Below, in pieces: positions 17,091 to 45,102 of a DNA stretch of 64,000 bases. Source of the stretch: Kondoa subrosea (taxonomy: Eukaryota). Under the pieces are notes generated by a model that was not told the DNA's origin, searched no databases, and saw nothing but the letters and a program-made list of their open reading frames with translations. The position numbers were made by a program, and so were the translations under genes. Position 1 is the first letter of the stretch. Every line of letters begins with the position of its first letter. The DNA lies in the NCBI GenBank assembly GCA_039545335.1, contig BCIN01000004.1:124001-188000 (forward strand), read 5' to 3'.

Positions 17091-17683
17091 CTTCATTCCG
17101 CCGATGTTTGGGAGAAAGTCGCTCGAGCTACCAAAGCACATCGTCTGCCTGCGAATACATCATTCTGAACGCCTTGTCATTCATATCTTGCCACTCATTG
17201 CTATCAGTCAAGAGTGAGTGTTCTCGCATCAAAGTCTCTGTCTACTCTGCTTTCGACTTCATGATGAGGAAGCAGTCAATGTAAATCCTCTGTGTACCTC
17301 CCGGAGGGTGCATATGCATCGAACTTCGACGATGAGATTATCGATTGTCTTGCTACAGCCAAAATACGGTACAGGAGTAACTTCTCGCTCTCGCCAATCA
17401 TTGCGCCCTATTGTCCCACCCATTCCTGGTCCTGTAATACAGCAATGTTCTCTAGGGGCCAAGCGGTCACTTTAAACGTTTTTTTTTGGTTTTTTTTTTT
17501 TTTTTTTTTTTTTTTTATACAAATCATTAATTCTCGATCTCTCTATCAATCTNTTACGTGCTCGGTCTCGCTGTTTTGTTCTCTGAAGTAGAAAGGGAAC
17601 GCTGAAATAGACAATTTGCTTGTAGGTAGTACAGAACTTGTATGCTAGCTTATTCATAGAACGACCATTGCAAACGAAAATCG

Positions 17684-17900
17684 GCACGCGCCCTCTAGGA
17701 GGACTCGCACAGTAGAGTACTATTATGCGATATGGCAGGAGATTCTTCAGCCCCAGTCACCGAAGTTCCTGGAACGCCAAATTCACCGCCGAAACGAATG
17801 AAAGTGGGTATAGACGTTGTGAGGGATTCCAACCCGACCTCGCATTAGATGCGACGCCCCTCTGTGGTCTTAGGCCGCATTTCGCCTGCACAGAGGCCTA
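17684..17900. repeat. 217-bp direct repeat, copy 1 (3' UTR of the retrotransposon)
   Basis: Matches 19934-20150 with 6 substitutions by my count, all clustered at 17719-17743. Confidence 0.97.
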
Positions 17901-17911
17901 GAACTCCTGCC

Positions 17912-19909
17912 TTAGCGTTTGGGATCCGACTTTGGTTTGGATAAAACCGCAGTCTTTGATGATGTAGTAGAACGAGGAGCTGGCTTCCTCTTTTGAGCGC
18001 TCTTCCTCTTCTTCTGTGCTGCTGCTTTCTTGGCCATTTTCGCTCGAATCTTCATTTCTGCTGATGTTGCTGAATCGAAGATCTTCTTAGCGACTCGCAG
18101 CATCTGTTCTCTTGTCAGATGCTTTGATGCCATCATTGAGAAGCGTTGATGAGTTGCAAGTTTGTGGATTTGGTGTTGGTATACCATCATGAACGCTACT
18201 GTAATCGGATCGTACGATGGGCATACGAACTGCGTTATATCAGGTGGTTCCTTCAGATGAGCAGGTGGGCCAGCAAGTGCCCATATTTCCTTTGAGGTGG
18301 TGCAATGCGAGAAGATGTGAGCGAAATCTTCTCTGACCATATCTCCGCACAAAGAACACTGCGAATCATTGCCAACTGGACGATGATTCTTCCATTCAAT
18401 CTTGCGGGATTGTGGTTGTAGAGAGCCGAGAGATATGCGATGGGCTGTGTCGACCTCTTCTGGTAGAATTCGATCGAGTAAAGCTGTTGTTGTCCATGCT
18501 TTCTGCCATCGTTCATGGATAAGGTTTGGGAAACGAGACTTCCAGCCTCCCGGTTCGATTGTTCTCCTGAAGAGCTGATGTTGCCTACGCTGATTGACTA
18601 CATCTTGTGCTACTGCAATGATATCTCCACCTATTTGACGGAAATTGCTGGAGTCTACCATCGTAAGGAAACCCCACGCATTGTGCTGCTTCCTTTCTAC
18701 TTGCTTGGATAAGAAGGTTTCGCTCCAGTTGAGGTTCTTTGGAAGGTATGTTGCAAGCTCCCAGGCTTCAAGGTAATCTTGCCATGTTGGCGACAAGAGG
18801 TTGCGCATTTTGGATCTTGCGACTGCCCATGCGACCCGCTTGTCATCTGGTGCGTTGCAAAAGAGAGCTCTCCAGTTCCAGAAGTATCCAGGATCATCGG
18901 AAGAAGTTCTTGGCTGTTTTGCAACTGCATTGACTAATCGCTTGCGTATAGTGAGTAGATGCGGTTCCTGAGACATCACGGGATCGCATAAGAGCCAGTA
19001 GATCCACACTCCTCTGGAGCCATAGAGTTGTCTCTTGAGTGGAAGTAAGCCGAAACCGCCTGAGGCCATTGGAGTGGTAAGCCTGTCCAATGAGACCTCA
19101 TGCCTACCTCTCTTCCACATCATGTTGACTACAGCCCGCTCCAGATCATCTATGAAATGGTCTGGACATGGTAAGAAAGCGTCCAAGTAGAAAATCTTTG
19201 AGTAGAGACGAGTGTTGATGATATGCGTTCTAGTAGCTATTGGGAGGTCGAACATAGGTATACTGTTGCCGCGGCGCTTGACCTTGGCCAGCATCTCGGT
19301 CCAGACAACATTTCTGTCGACGTTTCTTCCAACCATGACTCCGAGTAATGGAAAGTCGTCCCTTTGCACTGGCCACCCTTGATATACTTCTCCTTGGACT
19401 ATATCCCTCATTGCACCCAGTGGATACAAGAGAGACTTCTTTTTCGACGCAAGTGAAGCGGAGGCCTTTTCATACGTGTTGTTGCAATTTGAAAGAGTCT
19501 GGAGATCCTCTCCATCGGCCACTCCTGTCTGGGCATCATCTGCAAAAGCTCTTTCGCGATAGACTTTACCTATGACAAGAGGGATCCCTCGAACGCGTTT
19601 TCGGATCATGCAGAGGAGAGGTTCGACCAATATTGCATATATCCAAGGCGATTCTGGTCCTCCTTGTCCGACACCAGTGTGTAGATCGAATTGCCGTCCA
19701 ATCCATCCGTTCATGTAGATTGATCCAGTTCGGCCAATGAATGCAGATTTGATGTTGGACATCATGCGTGGTCCGAAACCCAAGGTTTCAAGGCATTTGA
19801 TGATCCATTTGTGGTCGGGATAGTCGTATGCATTCTCGAAGTCGGTTACTGCGATCATGCCTGGATAGTCGTCTTCCTCCTCGACTCTTCTTTGGAATTC
19901 AGCAAACGC
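17912..19909 (-). CDS. Truncated ORF2: C-terminal part of reverse transcriptase plus CCHC zinc finger; endonuclease missing
   Basis: DFENAYD (motif A), GVGQGGPESP (motif B), AFADD (YADD-like), GGFGL, CSLC..EDFAHIFSHC; 17 further in-frame codons upstream of the ATG at 19858. Confidence 0.9.
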   Translation of the reverse strand, partial: AFAEFQRRVEEEDDYPGMIAVTDFENAYDYPDHKWIIKCLETLGFGPRMMSNIKSAFIGRTGSIYMNGWIGRQFDLHTGVGQGGPESPWIYAILVEPLLCMIRKRVRGIPLVIGKVYRERAFADDAQTGVADGEDLQTLSNCNNTYEKASASLASKKKSLLYPLGAMRDIVQGEVYQGWPVQRDDFPLLGVMVGRNVDRNVVWTEMLAKVKRRGNSIPMFDLPIATRTHIINTRLYSKIFYLDAFLPCPDHFIDDLERAVVNMMWKRGRHEVSLDRLTTPMASGGFGLLPLKRQLYGSRGVWIYWLLCDPVMSQEPHLLTIRKRLVNAVAKQPRTSSDDPGYFWNWRALFCNAPDDKRVAWAVARSKMRNLLSPTWQDYLEAWELATYLPKNLNWSETFLSKQVERKQHNAWGFLTMVDSSNFRQIGGDIIAVAQDVVNQRRQHQLFRRTIEPGGWKSRFPNLIHERWQKAWTTTALLDRILPEEVDTAHRISLGSLQPQSRKIEWKNHRPVGNDSQCSLCGDMVREDFAHIFSHCTTSKEIWALAGPPAHLKEPPDITQFVCPSYDPITVAFMMVYQHQIHKLATHQRFSMMASKHLTREQMLRVAKKIFDSATSAEMKIRAKMAKKAAAQKKRKSAQKRKPAPRSTTSSKTAVLSKPKSDPKR

Positions 19910-20150
19910 TTTTTTTTTTTTTTGATTTATTCAGCACGCGCCCTCTAGGAGGACTCGCACAGTAGAGTGCTATTGTGAGAAAAGGCAGGAGAATCTTCAG
20001 CCCCAGTCACCGAAGTTCCTGGAACGCCAAATTCACCGCCGAAACGAATGAAAGTGGGTATAGACGTTGTGAGGGATTCCAACCCGACCTCGCATTAGAT
20101 GCGACGCCCCTCTGTGGTCTTAGGCCGCATTTCGCCTGCACAGAGGCCTA
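19910..20150 (-). mobile_element. Short polyadenylated retroposed copy of the element 3' UTR (repeat copy 2 at 19934-20150)
   Basis: On the minus strand: 217-bp UTR copy, TGAATAAATC (contains AATAAA), then A14 (poly(T) 19910-19923). Confidence 0.85.
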
Positions 20151-20227
20151 AGCGCTCTACAGATAAATTTTGATTGATTTATAAACGCGTTGTGAGCGCA
20201 AGCCTCTCAATATTGATTTCCTTAGAT

Positions 20228-20382
20228 CTGAACGTGGTCGAGTGGTTAAGACGATAGACTTGAATACCCATTCAAACGTTATCTATTGCAATTTTGCGCG
20301 TAGGTTCAAATCCGTGAGTCGCTTTCCTCAGTAACAATTTCTATTCGCTCACGTTTGCGCTTCTTGAATAGTGCCGTTCAGG
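20228..20382 (+). tRNA. tRNA-Ser(UGA) with a canonical intron (20265-20280) and a second GT-AG insert in the T-stem (20314-20371)
   Basis: Acceptor CTGAACG/CGTTCAG with G73; D-arm GTC..GAC containing A-box TGGTCGAGTGG; anticodon stem ATAGA/TCTAT with anticodon TGA; long variable arm; T-arm GTAGG-TTCAAAT-CC|TGC. Confidence 0.9.
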
Positions 20383-20391
20383 TGACACATC

Positions 20392-20397
20392 TTTTTT
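20392..20397 (+). terminator. RNA polymerase III terminator (T6) of the tRNA gene
   Basis: TTTTTT starts 10 nt after the discriminator base and is the first run of 5 or more T after the tRNA start. Confidence 0.8.
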
Positions 20398-20816
20398 GCA
20401 TCTACGCCGTACGCAAAGGGATCAGCAAACTATCGCTTAGTGTGTTCTCATTCCGATCCCAAGAGCGCTGCAGCATACGGGGTGCCAGGCAATCATTCCC
20501 TCGCCAGTCTTTATGTTGAAGGCGTCCGGATAGACAAGGCAGGTCTAAGCACTGCAGCACACCGTAGTAGGAAGACTATGGAAAGCAGTGACACCACACA
20601 GAGCATGCAGCCAAGCAACGGACGAATGTAGAATAAAAGCGTTTGGATAGATCATGAAGAAAAGAGTTCCACACAACCCAAAACAGAGATATTGACAGCA
20701 CATCACGAGTTGCAGCAAATCTACGACGTATTTGGAGTACCGCAGACCTAGAGTTATTGATTAGAAATGTTATCGAGACATATTATAAGAAACGGGCCTA
20801 ACCTCATCGGCATTCG

Positions 20817-21493: not shown

Positions 21494-22908
21494 GCGTAGT
21501 ATAGCAGACGACGTCAAGAGGGAAGAAAGGGAAAGACAAGCGACCAAGCAAATAGGGGAATGAGGAAAGACCCAAGACTACCGACGGACACTGCACAAGT
21601 GGGAGGATGGCGCCTGCACAATAACCATGGAGTTTAAAAAGTAGACATGTTACTCCCAAACGATCTGCCACATCAAGGTGCTCTCCTGATTCGTGATTAC
21701 TATCCGACAGAGCGTAGATTGAGGCATAGAGCAAAAGCAACACGCGCATATTAATGAAAGCAATGTTTCAAGCTTCAGAGATGCAAATCTTGGAAATGCA
21801 TTACGACGAGTTATGTGCTCTGTCGAGCGTGGTCACATTATCCCTATTGTCCGCACCATCTCGAATGACTCTTATTACATTAGACCAGATCGTCCGTTGC
21901 TTTGCACTCAATATTTCCTTGTATACCGAAGGCAACTTGAAGCAATCTGTCTATTCCTTATAATCGATCTTGGGTTCGATATTCGCCAAATGAGCTTTGA
22001 GGCCTGTAGTCGGATCGAAGACTTCGGGACACAGAGATAGCGGCAGTACTGCAAGTTACGAATTGCCTTGTAGCGTTTGCGTTTTGGGTTCTTCAAATTG
22101 CTCGTGTCGTGACCTACAGACGGATGCGAAGGATCTTGAGGTACCGCTTGTTCGTCATCTTAGTATGACCGGTTGAGCACTACCAATCTAAGCTGTTCTG
22201 AGCTGAATGTCTCAAGACCCTCCAAGTCGATTCACAGCATCTTCGCAATGCCGAATCGCCGATACGGAGCTGGTACCGTGGTAGAAAATCTCGCAGTGTA
22301 GAGAGAAGTGTCGCCGATAGCATCCACAGTCCATTGCTCAAGCGCGCCATAGCCAACTAAAGCATCGCTTACAGAAGCCAAAAAGACAAGCAAATTCGTG
22401 AAGATCGTGCATCTGAGGTATTGCTGGTGCTTTTGCAAATCTTCGAGAGAAGTCGGTCGTCTTACAGCTTCGCTTACGTAGGTTGTACGGAAGCATCTCG
22501 AAAGACCAGGCGAGAAGCTTTCCTATTTGGACTGAGCTCATTTACAGAGTATAAAGACCAGGAGCAGAAGAAGGAGAAGATGGCAATCATCCGATTAGTC
22601 AAGCGAAACATCGCTTTAAGGATCCGAACAGCATGCATTGACATTAAGTTTGGTCATTATAAGATCTAGATTAGAAGTTCTGCTAGTAGAGGCAGCAAGA
22701 CGCGCATGAAAAGCAACAAGAAAATATGACATGCAATGCATGAGAGAGAGCTCGAAGACTTGGGCTAGAGGGAGGCTCTTCCGCGCTCCCAGAGTATATT
22801 TCGCGCTCTAAAGACTCTGCAAATAAAGGACACATCATGGGCTATCACACCGCATGACGGCTTGGAACAAGAATGTTGATTTCCAATTTTTGACCTTGTG
22901 CAGCCTGG

Positions 22909-25900
22909 ATGCGCTTGTCGCCTGCTAGAATCTCGCCTGGCAAGCTCTACTTCGACCGCAAACAGTCTAGAGGCAACGAAGATGCCCAGCTTGCCGCTCT
23001 ATTGGATAACAATGGGCAAGAAAGTGATCTGCTTAAAGCCTTGAGGGCGGCTCAGCCAGACTCCCAATCTGCTCAAGAAACTCAATATCATCTGTACCTC
23101 GAACCAGGAACGCAGATTGTAGAGGAATTATGCTGGAAAGGCACTAAAGTCGTCTGGAGCAAAGCAAACGCTGTTTACAATGTCTTTGACTTTCAGAACG
23201 AGGGTACAGAAGGCGGCATTGTCATCAGAGCACTCTTTGCTTGGTTTGATCTATCTTCTTCTGCTGCTGCATCTTCTTCCGCAAGCAAGAAAGTGCGAGC
23301 TGGAACTACAAGCAAGACTCTGTTTGGTCCCTTCCATCATCCTGCTGACAAGCCCTGGTCCGATGAAAGGCAGCAAGATGGAGCCCGGTCTCAGCTACAA
23401 GTCAAACAGAAGTCGGAACGTGCTATCTGTGTTTGCTTGCGAGATCTGCTGCATCTGTATTTTCCAAGAACAGGAGAGACTTACGGCCTGCATCTTCCAT
23501 TTCTGATATCTTCAGCCAGACCTCTCGAGCACGGACTACTGATTGAAAGATCGCTTACAACAGCTGAAGCAGCATTAAATACGCCTAAGATGTACACTCT
23601 GACTGATCCTTACGACGAGTTCAGAAGCATCTCGACGTGTGACACTTTCGTTACTGAGCCCTTTAACAATTCTTCTGGCAAATTGCAAGTCGCGCCGCAA
23701 GGATCTTTTTCAAGCTTTCGTTCTCAAACTGAAACGGCTATCTACTGCTCTCGCGGCCAGAATGGCGAACCCAAGGTCCTCATCACATCTGATCTCAGCA
23801 CTTCTAAGATTAGTCTCTATCAATACAAGATCCTCGATCAGCCTCTACCTTCTTTATCCTCCTCGTTCACAACAAGTCCTCCTCAGCCAGAAGGAATGGA
23901 AGAAGACGATCTGTCTCAATTTGCTCCAGGTGATCCTCGAAGAGGTCTGGAAGATCTAAGAGCAAATACTACTCTGGCGTCGCATGCTGAGAAACGGACA
24001 AGGGGTGCAGCAATCGATCAAAGCATCAATATCGACCGGATGCCTTTGGATAGGGAACCCAGCATGCTGTTACCTAATACCGGAGCTGGTCATGCTGCTG
24101 GTCACACGAATGCAACAGCGGATGGGACACAGATTGAGCATGAGATGGATAATAGTCAAGATGATAGTACGAGCAAGAGCCTACTATGGCTACAGAAGGT
24201 CTGGGAGAGAAGTTTTGATCTGACACAGTCAGTCGTCTGCCGCTTTGTTCGTGTCAAAGCTAAGTTTTGCCGACAAGGGGTCCCTTTGAAGCACATTTAT
24301 TCGATTCTCGAAATGCGCACACGGTTTTGGCACTGCACGATACTTCCGCGAACGCTCTATATCTACTTCAGATCGAAACTTCTGGGCTTCAGATGAATGT
24401 TTCTGAGCTACGCCAGCTCGACGCTACATTCGCCGCGCCCGTGCTATCAACCAGACCTCAAGTTTACGATTTATTCTTACGCAAACTCGATGGCTCGCTG
24501 GCACTGCTTTCCGCAAATGCAGAAGAACGCCTTGTGCAAGGTCAGAGTGTTTCCGGCAGCAATTTATCCGCAGCGCTAGGATCCTCAGTGAAGATTTGTC
24601 AAGGTAACGACTCGAGGCAGCTAGATCTACAGCTCTGGTCCAAAGATCAGCTGACAAAGACTTGTTTGGAAACGCTATCTTCGGTTCTACCTTCCGAATC
24701 TTTTCTTCCAATTTACAATGCTGTGGTAGATGCACAATACACCAATGAGTTGGTGGCTTCCTCTTTTATCACCAACTTTTCTGCATTTTCTTCCGTGCTC
24801 GTCCAAAGCTTTCAGCAAAGACTAGACATCGAAGAGTCGACTTCTGAACCTCAAACAGCCTGGGACAAGCTGCAGGCGATGAGTAATTCCGCCATTAAGA
24901 GACAAAGTCAGGCATCTTCCTCTGCGCTTTCACCTGTCTCGCTAGGTGAAGCTGTTCATATTTCCTCTTTGCCCACTGAGCATTTGGAAGCTATTCTTCT
25001 GTCTCTACATCTGCTTTATGAAGATTCTCTACTCAAGTCCACAACATGGAATGAGGCAGTTTTACTTCAACCTTTGTTGAGTCGATTGGCGGCAAGTTTA
25101 GGCCAAGCTCGCTGGATTGACTATTACAGGCGAGACGGAGCCTCGATCGATGATGTTCGACCTCAAAGTAAGCAGGATAACGTATCACTTTATGCAAGTC
25201 TTATAATTTTCAATACAGCAGCAACCTCACTCCTTCCGCCTGAACCGCCGGATCTTCGCAAAACCCTCAATTCCCTCCTCAGTCGCAGATCGGACCACTC
25301 CTACCCATCACTTGATCTTCTCGCTACTCAAATCAGCGGCCACCCAGTCCTTTACTTTGGTCCAGTTGGACTATGTAACACGAGCCGAAAGCTTCTCGAA
25401 ATCTTTTCGCTGTGGCGACCTGAAAATACCAGCTTAACATCATCACAAAGAGCTCAAGACATTGTGCGGAAAGTCCACGATCTCGGATGGTCAGCAGCAT
25501 TCATCGAGAGTTTGGCTCCGGTTTTTGCACTGCCGATCAAAGAAGCTACGAGACATTGTTTGGCTTCGCCTCCATCAGACTGGTCGTCAAGCATGTATAC
25601 CTTGATTGGAAGACCAGATTTAGCCGTTCAAGTTGGAACAAGTACCGATCAAGAGCAGGTTAAGGCTAAAGTCAAGCGGGTGAGTGTCCTGGCTATAGCT
25701 TAGCTGTGATTCTGATAGTATTGTTGTGCTAGGCCACGCAAGCTTTCGACAACTTCTCAATCGGCGAGGCTTGTAATGTGCAGGTTCGCAAGAAAGGCAA
25801 TAGCAAGCAGGCTGGGATCCCAATTGTGGTCGACAACAAGAAGGCCTTTCCACTGCCAATCTTTATGGATAGGAGAGTCGAGGAGGTCATTCGGCTCTTC

Positions 25901-28746
25901 CAAACTCACAAGGTGACCGTAATAAAAATGGGCGATGCAAAGTGAGTACCGTTTCGACAGAGAGGTTTACTTCGGGCTGATCCTGAACTAGTGATCCTGG
26001 GACCAACGCTGATCATACTACTTTGGCAACTGCCGCTGTTGCCCGTGTTCTTTCAGTCCCGACGGGTTTGGCAGCCTTCACTTTCGGTACTCGCCCTCCA
26101 TTAACGACTGAGCACTCTGCTATTCCGGACATCAATGTCTCTGTCAAGATTGTGCCTCAAGGTGTGGCCGTTGAATTGGACATGGTACAATTGACCAAAG
26201 ACAAGCGATTCTGGGGCGACTTCCACCATGGTGTTGCGATTGCTCTTCAGCAGAGGGTATCTACAGACGTAGTGGACCCATCAAACATATCATTCAATCG
26301 ACCTAGTGAGCTGGACGCCAAACACGCCGGCTATCTACTCGGTCTAGGTTTGACTGGACAGCTTCGGTCAATGGCTTTGTTCCAAGCCTTCTCATACTTG
26401 GATCCGAAGCATGAATATACATCTATCGCGATGCTTCTCGGTCTCTCGATCGCTTTCATGGGTACTGCAGATCCCAAAGTAACGAATGTGTTGGCTGTTC
26501 ATCTCTCCGTTCTTCATCCTAGCAATTCGAGCGAACTCAATCTGACTCTCCTCACACAATGTGCTGGACTAATCGGACTCGGCTTCTTGTATCTTGGCAC
26601 TCACAATATGTACATGGGAGAAGCAATCTTGCGAGAATTGGGCAAGATGGTAGTACTCAATATGGAACAAGCTGAAACTTGCCGTGAATCTTATGCCTTA
26701 TCAGCTGGTATGGCATATGGTATGATTATGATGGGACATCAGAGCAAAGCTGGAGGCCCAGGAGATGCGTCAAATCTGCGAAAGTTGGCAAGTCTGATCG
26801 ATGGGACCGGTCAATATCCACTACCTGGGACAAAACGTGGTGCTGTTCCGGCGATAGATATCAATATTACAGGTCCAGCAGCCACATCTGCTCTGGCTCT
26901 TGGGTTCTTTAAAACAAACAGATCCGATGTTCTGGCAATGATTGAACTCCCTCGCACGCAAGATCGTTTGGACTTCATTCGGCCCGAGTTACTACTGATG
27001 CGAACCATTGCTCGGTGTATGATCACCTTCGATTCGGTTAGCGCAACAGAAGCTTTCATCTCGAGTTCAATTCCCAAATTCATCAGTGACGCAATGCACA
27101 AGCAAGCTTTTAGTTCCGTTGCTGTAGAGTTGGATATTGAGAACGCCTATTGGAATATCGTTTGCGGAGTCTGCTTTGTGATCGCTCTCAAGTATGCTGG
27201 AACTGCTTCGTATGAAGTCCATCAGCTGCTTCTGCATTACGTGGACACTCTTCTGCGAAATACTTCGATGAAGGGTAAGTCGCATTTGCGGTAGCTATGG
27301 AGGTTGCTCATATTCTGTATAGCATCTTCTCTCCAGCAGAAACAGCGGCGCTTTACTCTGCGGAACGCCTTTTCCATCATTACCCTCTCGCTCTCGATGG
27401 TATTTGCTGGAACGGGTGAGCTACAGATCTTCCGACGACTCAGGTCGCAATACGGAAAGATTACGGAAGGCTACGATTATGGCTCTCATTTGGCAAACAA
27501 TCTAGCAATCGGCCTACTCTTCCTGGGCGGCGGCAAGTACACATTATCAACTTCTCCCGCAGCTATAGCTGCCATGTATTGCGCTTTCTATCCTTCTTTC
27601 CCATCTCATGCGGGCGATAACCGCAGTCACATTCAAGCAGCCCGTCATGTTTGGGTATTGGCAGCAGAGCCGCGTTGCCTAGTAGCACGAGACATCGACT
27701 CTGGACAAATTGTGCACATGCCCTTGAAGCTGCGGACTTTCGAACCGGCAACGGGCGATGTTCGCTCAACCAAGATGACGGCACCAACTCTGTTCCAAGA
27801 GATCAGCCGACTCCACTCCATCAAAGTCGATAGCGCTCGATACTGGCCGGTAACACTCCAGATCGCAGAGAATGAAGATCACCGAGAAAGCTTTATTCGC
27901 TCGCAAACTATCTTTGTCAAGCGTCACGCGGGCAAATTAGACTACTCGCAAGATGCAAAGGGTGTCAGAGGGATGACATCGAGATCTGGTGCAGAAGCTG
28001 GAGCAACGGTCTCCGATCTGGGAGCAACTGCCCTGCTCATGCGATCCGATAACTCAACTTTACAGGGCGTCGTAGCTTCTTTCTCGGACGATCCGGTAGC
28101 TTCAGCTATAGTTCAATACTTGACTCCATCTTCAATATCAAGTGTGGAGGGAGAAGAAGCCCTGTTTGAAGCGTTCTCGTCTACGGTTCTTCTAGAATGC
28201 CTGAAAGAAGACAAGACCGATATAAGTAGTCTCTACTTCACGCTTTTCGCATTTGCAGGATATCAGAATCCTGTCTATGGCTTGCATCATCTTCAGAATC
28301 TCATTTCAGTCATTGGCTTCTACGCCAGTTCTACCTGGTCCAAACTCTTCGGCAACGATGTCGCAGAAGCCAGATCACCATTGATCACGAGATCGTTTAT
28401 CGATCATCTTCAATACCTTCTAGCGAAGCGTTTGGCTGCTTCTCTCACAACTGAACAGATAGAACACCTTCACAAATATCTAGAACATGGCACTTTCCCA
28501 GCATCAGCAGACCTGGCCAAGCTCTTACTTCTTCTTGATTGTCCGCCCCGACATATCGCATCGCAATTACAATCCCTTGTGAAGTCAGCTTCAAGTATTG
28601 TATTAAAACCTGAAGAAACGAGGGAAGAGCGAGCCAAATCGATCAACATGGTGCTCAACAGGACATTACAATCTTTGGCACGCCCAATGGGAACAGAAAG
28701 TCGAGCACAATTGACGGAGCTCATGATGCAGGCTTGGGCGAAATGA
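22909..28746 (+). CDS. APC1: Anaphase-promoting complex subunit 1
   Basis: EELCWKG..VVWS N-terminus, FHHGVA, HAGYLLGLGLTGQL, RESYALSAG, LDFIRPELLLMRTIAR, YGSHLANNLAIGLLFLGGG, DNRSHIQAARHVWVLAAEPRCLVARD. Confidence 0.93.
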
Positions 28747-41800: not shown

Positions 41801-42217
41801 GACATCACATTTGTACTACGGAGTTCAGTTACGGTTTACGAGAAGGCAATCAATATTACGAGTCGATTCCATGATTTGCACCTCTCGACGCGTTGGATCA
41901 CACAGCTGCAGTCTGAGGAAGGACCAAAACGCATCTGCAAAAGTCGCAAACGCGTCTCGCAGAAACGCGTCCCCAAACGACAGTGGATTTTTGAGCGGTA
42001 AACCAGCCTTTGAGATCAGACAGCGCACTTGCTCCGAGACCACCGAAACCTATCGCTGCTGAACAAAAAGCTTATCTCTCTCAGCAGCAATCAGGACTCG
42101 ATACAAGGACACAGAAGTGATTATTAAGAATGGGTGTACAAGAGTTTTCTGGTGCGTTTCTATCTGTCCGCACCCGTACCATCTGACAGAGACTCCTTCT
42201 CTTCTGTAGAATCGAAT

Positions 42218-43312
42218 ATGGAGAGCCCAGTAATTCACGAGAAAGAAGAGGACGCCCTTCTTGGCAGCAATCACGATATTGAAGAAGATCAATATGAAAT
42301 ACCTGTCAAGCGAAGCCAGAGTCCCAGATCTGCTCTATCACGTCTACTTAGACTTCTGATCGCTCTCGCTATTGGCTCTTCCCTTGTTCTTATATACATT
42401 TATCGGCTGCCAGATTACTTGCTGTTCAAGATAGGTTACCAGCAACCAGTAAAGGATTATGATAAGCTAGTTCTGGTCAGGTCGGGAGAGATGACAGGAG
42501 AAGGGCTGGGCGCTTTCACTACTCACATATCGGACGATATTTACTTGGCTACCCTTTGGGACATTCCGCTCAAGATTGTCTCAAGAGGTTATTATGAACA
42601 TGGCTACAATCCAGCCGAACTTCTGAGTGACCCAATTAAACTCGACGGGTATAAACCATGCGAACTGATGTCGTTTACTTGGTTTGGTCAACTTCGGTAC
42701 TTCATCAAACGAGATGATGATATCACCAGAGCGGAATTGAACAAATTCAAGCAAAAAGCTATCGATTTGGGTTGTAACGTGATCCACCATACCAGCAATG
42801 AAATTCAATCCAAGAACGCCGATAACGTTTACGGCGTTGGCACACATCTTCACTACAACCTCACCGCTGATTGGGTATACAAACATGCCTGCCCTCCTAT
42901 CAGCGAATTGAAGAACGCAACAGCTTTCACGATAAGATGGGGAGACGTAGCTACTTCGGATTGGAACACCAATCGCACTTGGCGAACCATTTCTCCAACT
43001 TATGCAACGCAATTGATTCAAGGCGAACGAGATGCTGGTCATCAAGATGTCACCTTGTTCATGCAAAATGCTTACAACAATGCAACCCAACTCATCCAAG
43101 ATCTGAATCTAACTTATTGGAACAACACAAGCGATCTTGAGACGTTCTGCGAACTTGCAAGTCATCGCCGTATATTCTACTCCTATGGCAACATGTATCA
43201 TTTGGCAGCAGCTTTCCGCGGAGAAGAAAAGACAGTAGTCATCACTCCTGGTTCAGATGATCCCGATAAAAGTGTGGGAAGGAGGCATAAAAGATCTAGA
43301 AGACCGCTGTAG
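42218..43312 (+). CDS. Intronless type II membrane protein, putative fucosyltransferase-superfamily glycosyltransferase (copy 1)
   Basis: Cytosolic N-terminus, one TM helix, GEGLG, FTIRWGDV (like HIRRGD), DLETFCELAS; paralog at 44014-45102. Confidence 0.6.
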   Translation: MESPVIHEKEEDALLGSNHDIEEDQYEIPVKRSQSPRSALSRLLRLLIALAIGSSLVLIYIYRLPDYLLFKIGYQQPVKDYDKLVLVRSGEMTGEGLGAFTTHISDDIYLATLWDIPLKIVSRGYYEHGYNPAELLSDPIKLDGYKPCELMSFTWFGQLRYFIKRDDDITRAELNKFKQKAIDLGCNVIHHTSNEIQSKNADNVYGVGTHLHYNLTADWVYKHACPPISELKNATAFTIRWGDVATSDWNTNRTWRTISPTYATQLIQGERDAGHQDVTLFMQNAYNNATQLIQDLNLTYWNNTSDLETFCELASHRRIFYSYGNMYHLAAAFRGEEKTVVITPGSDDPDKSVGRRHKRSRRPL

Positions 43313-44013
43313 GAAGAGCAACACCAATCGAGGCAAGAAGGGAGAGATGGTAGAGATGGAAGATCAGCCTGTTTCTTCGAATTAGGCTTGCGATCATTGC
43401 TCAAATCCGGGTGGATCGAAGCTCTCCAGGCTGTGAGAAGGTGAAGAACATGTATGGCATTTGTAGCATTGCATTAGAGTATTCTGTATAGATTTGAGGA
43501 CACGCGCACGGATAATATGTGACCCTGATCCCCCTCAAATCGTAGCATACCTCTCGAGACTGGTCTAGCTCATCGACAACTGTATCACACTGCTTACAGA
43601 TTGCCTCTGAATGACTTTCAGCAAAGGTGTCAGATTACCTAAGCACCTTTATGCAAGGTAGTTTCAGGCTTCGAGCCAGAAGTAAGGCAGCTGACTCACG
43701 ATCGTAGCTATGGACCATGTAGGCTACTATGATGGAGCACACCTGCTTATAAAACCTGAACGTCGCTCTGCAGTGAACCACCAATATTTGAATCAACGGA
43801 TTGGACCTCCATCCACTGGCAGTCGGCGCGAACGCCCATCACTCAAAGTCCTGGCGACGCGCTCTCAAGTCCTCCTTGGCACAGATCGTCCGTGTTTACG
43901 GCTTACTGTGGACTGATCGTAAGCGAACTTGGACAAGGCAGTATTCATCTCGGTCAGTATTTTTTTGAGGCCTATACACGCGCAATTGACAACGAGCCTT
44001 CTCCGATCAGATC

Positions 44014-45102
44014 ATGGATAGCCCATTCCAAGAGAAAGAAGAAGACTCACTTCTTGGTAATCGAGATCGCGAAGGAGATCAGTTTGAGAAGCCGTTCAAG
44101 CGAAGCCAGAACACTAAGCAATACCTACAAGTTCTGCGTATAGCTCTAATCACTCTTGCGATTGGCTCCTTGCTTGTTCTTATCTACATTTATCGGCTGC
44201 CAGAGTATTTGCTGTCTCAGATGGGTTACCAAGGAGATGCAGGGAGTTTCGATAGGTTAGTTCTGGTCAGGTCGGGAGAGATGACGGCGGAAGGATTGGG
44301 TTCGTTTACAACTCATGTCTCGGACGATATCTACCTGGCTACTCTTTGGAACATTCCGCTCAAGATCGTTTCGAGAGGTTTTTACGACCATGGCTACAAT
44401 GTCGCTGAACTTTTGAGCGATGAAGTCAATCTCGATGGGTATCGGCCATGCGAATTAATGTCATTCACCTGGTTTGGCCAACTACGGTACTTCATTGAGC
44501 GAGATGACGAAATCACTAGGGCGGAGTTGAACAAATTCAAGCAGAAGGCAATCGAAATGGGCTGTAACGTGATTCACCATACCAGCAACGAGTTTCAAGC
44601 CAAAAACGTTAACGATGTTCACGATGTTGGCACACATCTTCACTACAACCTCACCGCTGATTGGGTATACAAACATGCCTGCCCTCCTATCAGCGAATTG
44701 AAGAATGCAACAGCTTTCACGATAAGATGGGGAGACGTAGCTACTTCAGATTGGAACACCAACCGAACTTGGCGAACCATTTCTCCAACTTATGCAACGC
44801 AATTGATTCAAGGCGAACGAGATGCTGGTCATCAAGACGTTACCTTGTTCATGCAAAATGCTTACAACAATGCAACCCAACTCATCGAAGATCTGAAGCT
44901 GACGTATTGGAACAAGACAAGCGATCTTGAAACGTTCTGCGAGCTTGCAAGCCATCGCCGCATATTCTACTCGTATGGCAACATGTATAGTCTCGCAGCA
45001 GCTTTTCGTGGGGAGGAGAAGACAGTTGTGGTTACACCTGGTGCAGACGATCCTGACAAAAGTCTGAGAAGGAGGCACAAAAGGTCAAGAAGTCGTTTAT
45101 GA
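44014..45102 (+). CDS. Intronless type II membrane protein, tandem paralog (copy 2)
   Basis: Collinear with copy 1, with the same motifs and an identical central protein segment. Confidence 0.6.
   Translation: MDSPFQEKEEDSLLGNRDREGDQFEKPFKRSQNTKQYLQVLRIALITLAIGSLLVLIYIYRLPEYLLSQMGYQGDAGSFDRLVLVRSGEMTAEGLGSFTTHVSDDIYLATLWNIPLKIVSRGFYDHGYNVAELLSDEVNLDGYRPCELMSFTWFGQLRYFIERDDEITRAELNKFKQKAIEMGCNVIHHTSNEFQAKNVNDVHDVGTHLHYNLTADWVYKHACPPISELKNATAFTIRWGDVATSDWNTNRTWRTISPTYATQLIQGERDAGHQDVTLFMQNAYNNATQLIEDLKLTYWNKTSDLETFCELASHRRIFYSYGNMYSLAAAFRGEEKTVVVTPGADDPDKSLRRRHKRSRSRL

Follow-up and report, generated by a model that had tools for sequence, protein, structure and literature searches.

In Schizosaccharomyces pombe and other fungi, the gene for the U6 snRNA carries an intron of the mRNA type (Tani and Ohshima 1989, 1991; described in passages of PMC5855946). 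Spliceosomal introns are also described, in parts of PMC5855946 and PMC5832005, for the U1, U2, and U5 snRNA genes of the basidiomycete yeast Rhodotorula hasegawae, and the same sources mention them in fungal U3 snoRNA genes and in ascomycete rRNA genes. The canonical introns of nuclear tRNA genes, as outlined in sections of PMC10485636 and PMC10275265, lie at position 37/38, pair with the anticodon, and form a further pair between position 32 and the intron. For Cyanidioschyzon merolae, portions of PMC9602550 and PMC3728597 describe ectopic and multiple tRNA introns, among them a T-arm intron in tRNA-Ile(UAU). Recent reviews treat spliceosomal and tRNA introns as separate classes (PMC12530127, PMC10275265, PMC10485636), and textbooks likewise regard the two as unrelated and as found in different kinds of genes. 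Our search of open-access papers and bioRxiv found no report of a spliceosomal intron in a tRNA gene, although a report in a subscription journal could be missed by such a search; this agrees with an earlier note on the DNA studied here, whose author, a model, knew of no established tRNA case.

The locus described below lies in a fungal stretch of DNA of 64 kb, all of which was analyzed and which we refer to as the window. Among the genes encoded in the window are those for MGM101, APC1, eIF3L, a Pex2/12 protein, a diphthamide-synthesis protein, and a GH31 enzyme. For MGM101, the named matches among the best 120 listed were all from Pezizomycotina (49 to 68% identity), and the eIF3L matches in the "longer" length class were from basidiomycetes (30 to 53% identity). 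We therefore describe the organism no more closely than as an ascomycete-like fungus.

Layout of the tRNA-Ser(UGA) locus

In the untouched 64-kb window, ARAGORN detected 0 tRNA genes, with or without its intron option, and Rfam gave no match at the gathering score. If the region was searched alone, Rfam returned a misaligned tRNA match spanning 20228-20310 with a score of 14.8 bits (threshold, 29). The expectation that standard tRNA finders would miss this gene thus held for both ARAGORN and Rfam. In contrast, in silico removal of 20314-20371 led ARAGORN to call a tRNA-Ser(tga) with a 16-nt intron in the anticodon loop, as would be expected if, as the earlier note had proposed, a tRNA-Ser(UGA) gene is split here by a 16-nt intron as well as by a 58-nt insert. 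Every sequence statement of that note on 20228-20397 (+) was reproduced. The locus and its immediate upstream neighborhood comprise the following features.

17681-20152, minus strand: retroelement cluster, ending 76 nt upstream of the tRNA
20180-20185, plus strand: TATAAA, 43 to 48 nt upstream of the mature 5' end (read from the sequence)
20228-20264, plus strand: tRNA exon 1, positions 1 to 37, with the acceptor 5' strand, the D arm, the anticodon stem 5' strand, and the loop with anticodon TGA (ARAGORN after excision; MFE cloverleaf)
20235-20245, plus strand: A box, internal Pol III promoter
20265-20280, plus strand: canonical tRNA intron of 16 nt at position 37/38 (ARAGORN)
20281-20313, plus strand: tRNA exon 2, positions 38 to 62, with the anticodon stem 3' strand, the long variable arm, the T stem 5' strand, and the T loop; its last two bases, ending at 20313, are the first two of the T stem 3' strand (ARAGORN; MFE fold)
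20303-20313, plus strand: B box, internal Pol III promoter, ending exactly at the insert
20314-20371, plus strand: 58-nt putative intron of the spliceosomal (GT-AG) type, between tRNA positions 62 and 63
20314-20319, plus strand: 5' splice site GTGAGT
20347-20352, plus strand: branch-site-like GCTCAC, with A20351 located 20 nt before the 3' end of the insert
20369-20371, plus strand: 3' splice site TAG (the insert ends with AATAG)
20372-20382, plus strand: tRNA exon 3, 11 nt, positions 63 to 73, with the final three T-stem bases, the acceptor 3' strand, and the discriminator G
20383-20397, plus strand: trailer of 9 nt, followed by a T6 Pol III terminator (20392-20397)

The 81-nt product left after removal of both interruptions adopted a full cloverleaf, including the long variable arm, as its MFE structure (-21.7 kcal/mol). 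Pairs were of the standard kinds throughout (7 in the acceptor stem, 5 in the T stem including one G-T, 5 in the anticodon stem, and 3 in the D stem), and a stem was broken at none of the 81 exon positions. The hallmarks of a class II tRNA-Ser, i.e., a cloverleaf with a long variable arm and a serine anticodon, were present only once 20314-20371 had been removed. Inspection by eye showed that the bases which we take to be conserved in tRNAs were all in place, namely, U8, A14, G18-G19, and U33, as well as purine 37, the T-loop motif GTTCRA, and C61. Both internal promoter boxes and the downstream T-run terminator typical of a Pol III gene were intact. The A box (20235-20245) and the B box (20303-20313) each matched what we assume to be their consensus at 10 of 11 positions, and their spacing is unchanged, since the insert begins immediately after the B box. 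Within 20228-20400, runs of four or more T occurred only at 20292-20295, in the variable arm and thus in an exon, and at 20392-20397; the 58-nt insert contains no such run. The sequence therefore agrees with the statement that the insert is free of T runs longer than 3 and that the A box, the B box, and T6 are intact. Upstream TATA boxes are used at tRNA genes by some fungi, and TATAAA at 20180-20185 is a possible upstream Pol III promoter element.

The 16-nt intron contains a stretch complementary to the anticodon loop and pairs with the anticodon, which had already been recognized from the letters; in addition, C20259 at position 32 can pair with G20278, the intron base at -3 from the 3' cut. 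ARAGORN placed the cut one base further on, and an ambiguous base permits either choice. The location of the 16-nt intron at 37/38 together with the anticodon-intron pair is characteristic of a eukaryotic intron of the endonuclease type. Taken as a whole, the sequence of the locus supports its interpretation as a nuclear tRNA-Ser(UGA) gene with two interruptions of different kinds.

The retroelement cluster upstream of the tRNA includes an open reading frame (ORF) at 17912-19930 on the minus strand (672 codons), which has RVT_1 and zf-RVT domains and is flanked by 220-nt direct repeats (17681-17900 and 19931-20150; 97% identical). Along the minus strand, an A14 run comes after the right-hand repeat, with the truncated reverse-transcriptase ORF adjoining this run, an arrangement that looks like two retroposed copies inserted in tandem, one after the other. 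In some organisms, retroelements target the upstream side of active tRNA genes, and the family found here may likewise target tRNA genes, this cluster being a single instance. At about 20055-20075 (minus strand), and likewise in the left repeat, a motif differing by one base from the tRNA B box lies in a short hairpin; neither ARAGORN nor Rfam detected a tRNA at this motif of the 220-nt repeat. The single N of the window (17553) adjoins a long T run (17500-17550, i.e., an A run on the minus strand) just past the retroelement, and this run could represent a poly(A) tail or a place difficult to assemble. Elsewhere in the window, two tandem ORFs on the plus strand (42128-43312 and 43990-45102; 394 and 370 codons) showed no Pfam match. 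The pair lies in a duplicated segment with repeats of 300 nt and 99 nt that are ∼80% identical and 1,790 nt apart.

Nature of the 58-nt insert

The earlier note had suggested removing candidate GT-AG introns in silico and rerunning a tRNA finder. We did so with ARAGORN for both strands of the 64-kb window, deleting each GTNNGY..AG candidate of 30 to 150 nt singly. Only 1 of the 6,984 removals gave a tRNA call, and it was that of 20314-20371. When arbitrary deletions around the site were offered instead, ARAGORN accepted 6 of 2,601, all of them within 2 nt of the GT/AG cut; that six deletions were accepted and not one reflects its tolerance of a mismatch. The GT/AG cut alone left all five T-stem pairs (letters read by eye). 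Hence, it holds that a cut precisely at GT/AG restores the T stem and a perfect 7-bp acceptor stem and that other cuts pair worse. A full set of splice signals, defined as GTRAGT, a branch motif 8 to 30 nt from the end, and YAG, was present in 3 of the 127,884 58-mers of the window, the tRNA insert included.

These counts bear on the possibility that the locus reflects chance or an artefact: it could be a decayed pseudogene of a tRNA, its insert being random, or it could stem from an assembly error. The screen extended over a very large number of windows, so that rare coincidences will appear somewhere and are somewhat likelier than the single-window figures suggest. Against this stand the solitary call among the removals, the scarcity of the signal set, and the confinement of accepted deletions to the immediate surroundings of the cut; even allowing for the many windows screened, we roughly estimate the probability of chance to be far below 1 in 100. 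With respect to an assembly error, Logan contigs of two DNA runs covered 20151-20600 with 0 differences (word depths, 144.7 and 54.7). One contig per run, and no further contig, was placed on this interval at 80% likeness, and short matches may escape the aligner. Since both runs come from one sample, which may be the source of the window DNA, the agreement is not independent support and argues only against a slip in this particular assembly. Overall, chance or artefact appears to us a remote explanation, the least probable of those considered.

The insert might also be a noncanonical tRNA intron that is cut by the tRNA splicing endonuclease, as are the T-arm introns of C. merolae, with its GT and AG ends being coincidental. 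Ectopic tRNA introns, including introns in the T arm, exist in C. merolae and in archaea according to passages of PMC9602550 and PMC3728597. However, of the 16 possible ways to place the two cuts within 3-nt bulges, the best one offered 3 of 4 central pairs and no lower helix, and a bulge-helix-bulge intron was rejected. With its position at 62/63 and no bulge-helix-bulge, the 58-nt insert lacks the attributes of an endonuclease-type intron. Furthermore, the fungal and animal enzyme measures from the mature tRNA body to 37/38, as stated in part of PMC10485636, and the combination of GTGAGT, branch site, and TAG, seen in so few 58-mers of the window, would be left unexplained. We therefore consider an endonuclease-cut intron to be highly improbable.

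Further comparisons addressed possible sources of the insert. A duplication of tRNA sequence was rejected: the best alignment with the exons comprised 8 nt, a value reached by 0.11 of shuffles. Neither a source intron nor a second copy of the insert was found in the 64-kb window, where the best other match extended over 11 nt; the check for an introner-type, multicopy element covered this window and revealed no second copy. The insert joins no ORFs, as it is absent from the ORF-joining list. A metagenome scan for a T loop and a 3' exon separated by 35 to 65 nt hit at least 119 loci. Among the matches listed, all were chance pairs without a GT..AG insert; neither an excision-dependent tRNA-Ser nor a related locus was found among them.

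By its sequence, the insert has the attributes of a U2-type GT-AG intron, namely, the extended donor GTGAGT, the branch-site-like GCTCAC, and a terminal TAG. For comparison, we predicted mRNA introns in the window by looking for short GT..YAG segments that contain a branch motif and connect two open frames, each with a minimum of 80 codons. The 16 introns predicted in this way were 48 to 89 nt long (median, 55 nt) and had loose donors (GTNNGT or GTNNGC), branch motifs such as GCTCAT, GCTAAC, and GCTGAT at 9 to 30 nt from their ends, and 3' ends reading TAG (9 introns) or CAG (7 introns). Two of these predicted introns roughly agree with exon gaps of the eIF3L gene in homologue alignments. The gene for APC1 (anaphase-promoting complex subunit 1) at 22894-28746 (plus strand) consists of four long open frames, with predicted introns of 48 to 53 nt (e.g., 25680-25732, 25942-25991, and 27275-27322). 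In length, donor, branch site, and TAG end, the tRNA insert falls within the range of the predicted introns, a comparison that is descriptive only, since they are predicted ones, selected by a filter with the same motif classes. With the signal set present and a length of 58 nt against the median of 55 nt, the claim that the insert is of the same type and size as the mRNA introns of the window was upheld.

The fold predicted for the pre-tRNA includes a 7-bp helix between the 5' splice site (20313-20319) and the branch region (20347-20353). The consensus splice motifs alone would pair over 5 bp, and the 7-bp helix takes in the last exon base. If formed, such a helix could place the two sites next to each other, or it could make them inaccessible to the spliceosome. 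From the sequence evidence as a whole, we conclude that the insert is very probably a true spliceosomal-type intron by sequence and origin.

Live gene or disabled copy

That the insert is also spliced and that the gene yields a working tRNA is a distinct claim, which the sequence leaves credible but, in our judgment, slightly on the doubtful side. More specifically, we tentatively propose a live gene at this locus, perhaps the sole tRNA-Ser(UGA) gene of the organism, which would need the spliceosome first and the endonuclease thereafter. Pol III would start a few bases upstream of 20228 and read through both introns to T6. The nuclear spliceosome would then remove the 58-nt intron in the T arm as a lariat, as it does for fission yeast U6, and the acceptor/T-arm helix would form only upon its removal. 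Since this helix is required by RNase P, by RNase Z, and by the tRNA splicing endonuclease, these enzymes would act afterwards, and the endonuclease together with a ligase would remove the 16-nt intron at 37/38 last. The proposed order fits a nuclear spliceosome followed by the later steps of tRNA maturation. Since the two introns are of different kinds, a live Ser(UGA) locus would make its tRNA only with both machineries.

Several points count against splicing and a live gene. The 3' exon is just 11 nt long and is followed by a short trailer, and the 7-bp pairing predicted between the 5' splice site and the branch region could hinder binding of U1 and U2. Pol III transcripts in mammalian cells are reportedly not spliced, a finding ascribed to Sisodia et al. 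1987. Moreover, this is a single locus, and an intact tRNA-Ser(UGA) paralogue may exist elsewhere, with a dead copy here.

The main and serious rival to a live gene is accordingly a young disabled copy, in which a genuine intron, or its cDNA, landed in one member of a multicopy tRNA-Ser(UGA) family. To this reading we give somewhat less credence than to a live gene. The intron could have arrived by reverse splicing, with reverse transcription and recombination thereafter, during the repair of a double-strand break, or by way of an intron-generating element. In this reading, the copy, transcribed or not, would not be productively spliced and would still be free of decay. A disabled copy accounts for the perfect splice signals and does not demand that a tRNA precursor be spliced, a process for which we found no precedent, and loss of one redundant tRNA gene copy would be almost neutral. 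A retroelement 76 nt upstream of the tRNA also speaks for it, as it means that a reverse transcriptase exists in the genome, and the helix predicted between the 5' splice site and the branch region could render splicing inefficient. On the other hand, exons, promoter boxes, terminator, and all three intron signals are intact, so that the disabling event would have to be recent, and the window holds no second copy of the insert. In addition, one would expect at least partial splicing of any true intron that is transcribed, as in the U6 RNA of fission yeast.

A live gene could also be expressed by another route, in which the tRNA is embedded in a Pol II transcript, either a noncoding RNA or read-through from a retroelement; the intron would be spliced cotranscriptionally and the tRNA cut out later. 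Such a route would be in keeping with the normal link between splicing and Pol II. The locus itself points elsewhere: the A and B boxes within the gene and the T6 run that follows the discriminator after 9 nt are hallmarks of an independent Pol III gene, the adjoining retroelement is on the opposite strand, and the insert does not join ORFs. We regard expression within a Pol II transcript as improbable. Even if combined, the explanations other than the disabled copy, i.e., the Pol II transcript, the endonuclease-cut intron, and chance or artefact, are unlikely.

If the gene is live, the supposedly separate classes of nuclear introns would meet in one 155-nt transcript, and dependence on the spliceosome would extend the short list of spliced Pol III transcripts beyond the established case of U6. 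[quoted passage not shown] Such tRNA genes would be systematically missing from fungal gene sets, because standard finders cannot see them; with this blind spot, apparent gaps in the tRNA sets of some fungi could be hidden genes rather than losses. Even if the copy is dead, it would represent a clean and datable gain of a spliceosomal intron in a noncoding gene.

Comparison with known systems

The canonical introns of nuclear tRNA genes are matched by the 16-nt intron at 20265-20280 in position, in anticodon pairing, and in the pair involving position 32, whereas the 58-nt insert at 62/63 falls outside this class. C. merolae resembles the present case in that a nuclear tRNA gene has more than one intron, one of which is in the T arm. 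Its introns are of the tRNA type, with relaxed bulge-helix-bulge motifs at which the endonuclease cleaves; the 58-nt insert, in contrast, has no bulge-helix-bulge and has spliceosomal signals instead.

The snRNA genes of R. hasegawae, fungal U3 genes, and ascomycete rRNA genes share with the locus the presence of normal spliceosomal introns in fungal noncoding RNA genes. As with the tRNA-Ser insert, the introns of U3 genes were recognized largely computationally, from splice-site and branch motifs. Yet none of these hosts is a tRNA, and for most of them many species can be compared, as opposed to one locus here.

The likeness to S. pombe U6 consists in a short GT-AG intron of the mRNA type inside a small, structured RNA gene of the Pol III type, and the tRNA-Ser locus combines the same two elements in its sequence, a Pol III-type host gene and mRNA-type intron signals. 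In U6, the spliceosome must act on a Pol III transcript, and at the tRNA-Ser locus it would have to do the same. The two differ in that splicing of U6 has been shown experimentally, whereas the tRNA-Ser insert is known from its sequence. Likewise, the U6 intron has been proposed to stem from reverse splicing at the active site, an origin that cannot simply be transferred to a tRNA, which is not part of the spliceosome. Spliceosomal introns in small Pol III-type RNA genes are thus known, and what is apparently new is the tRNA as their host.
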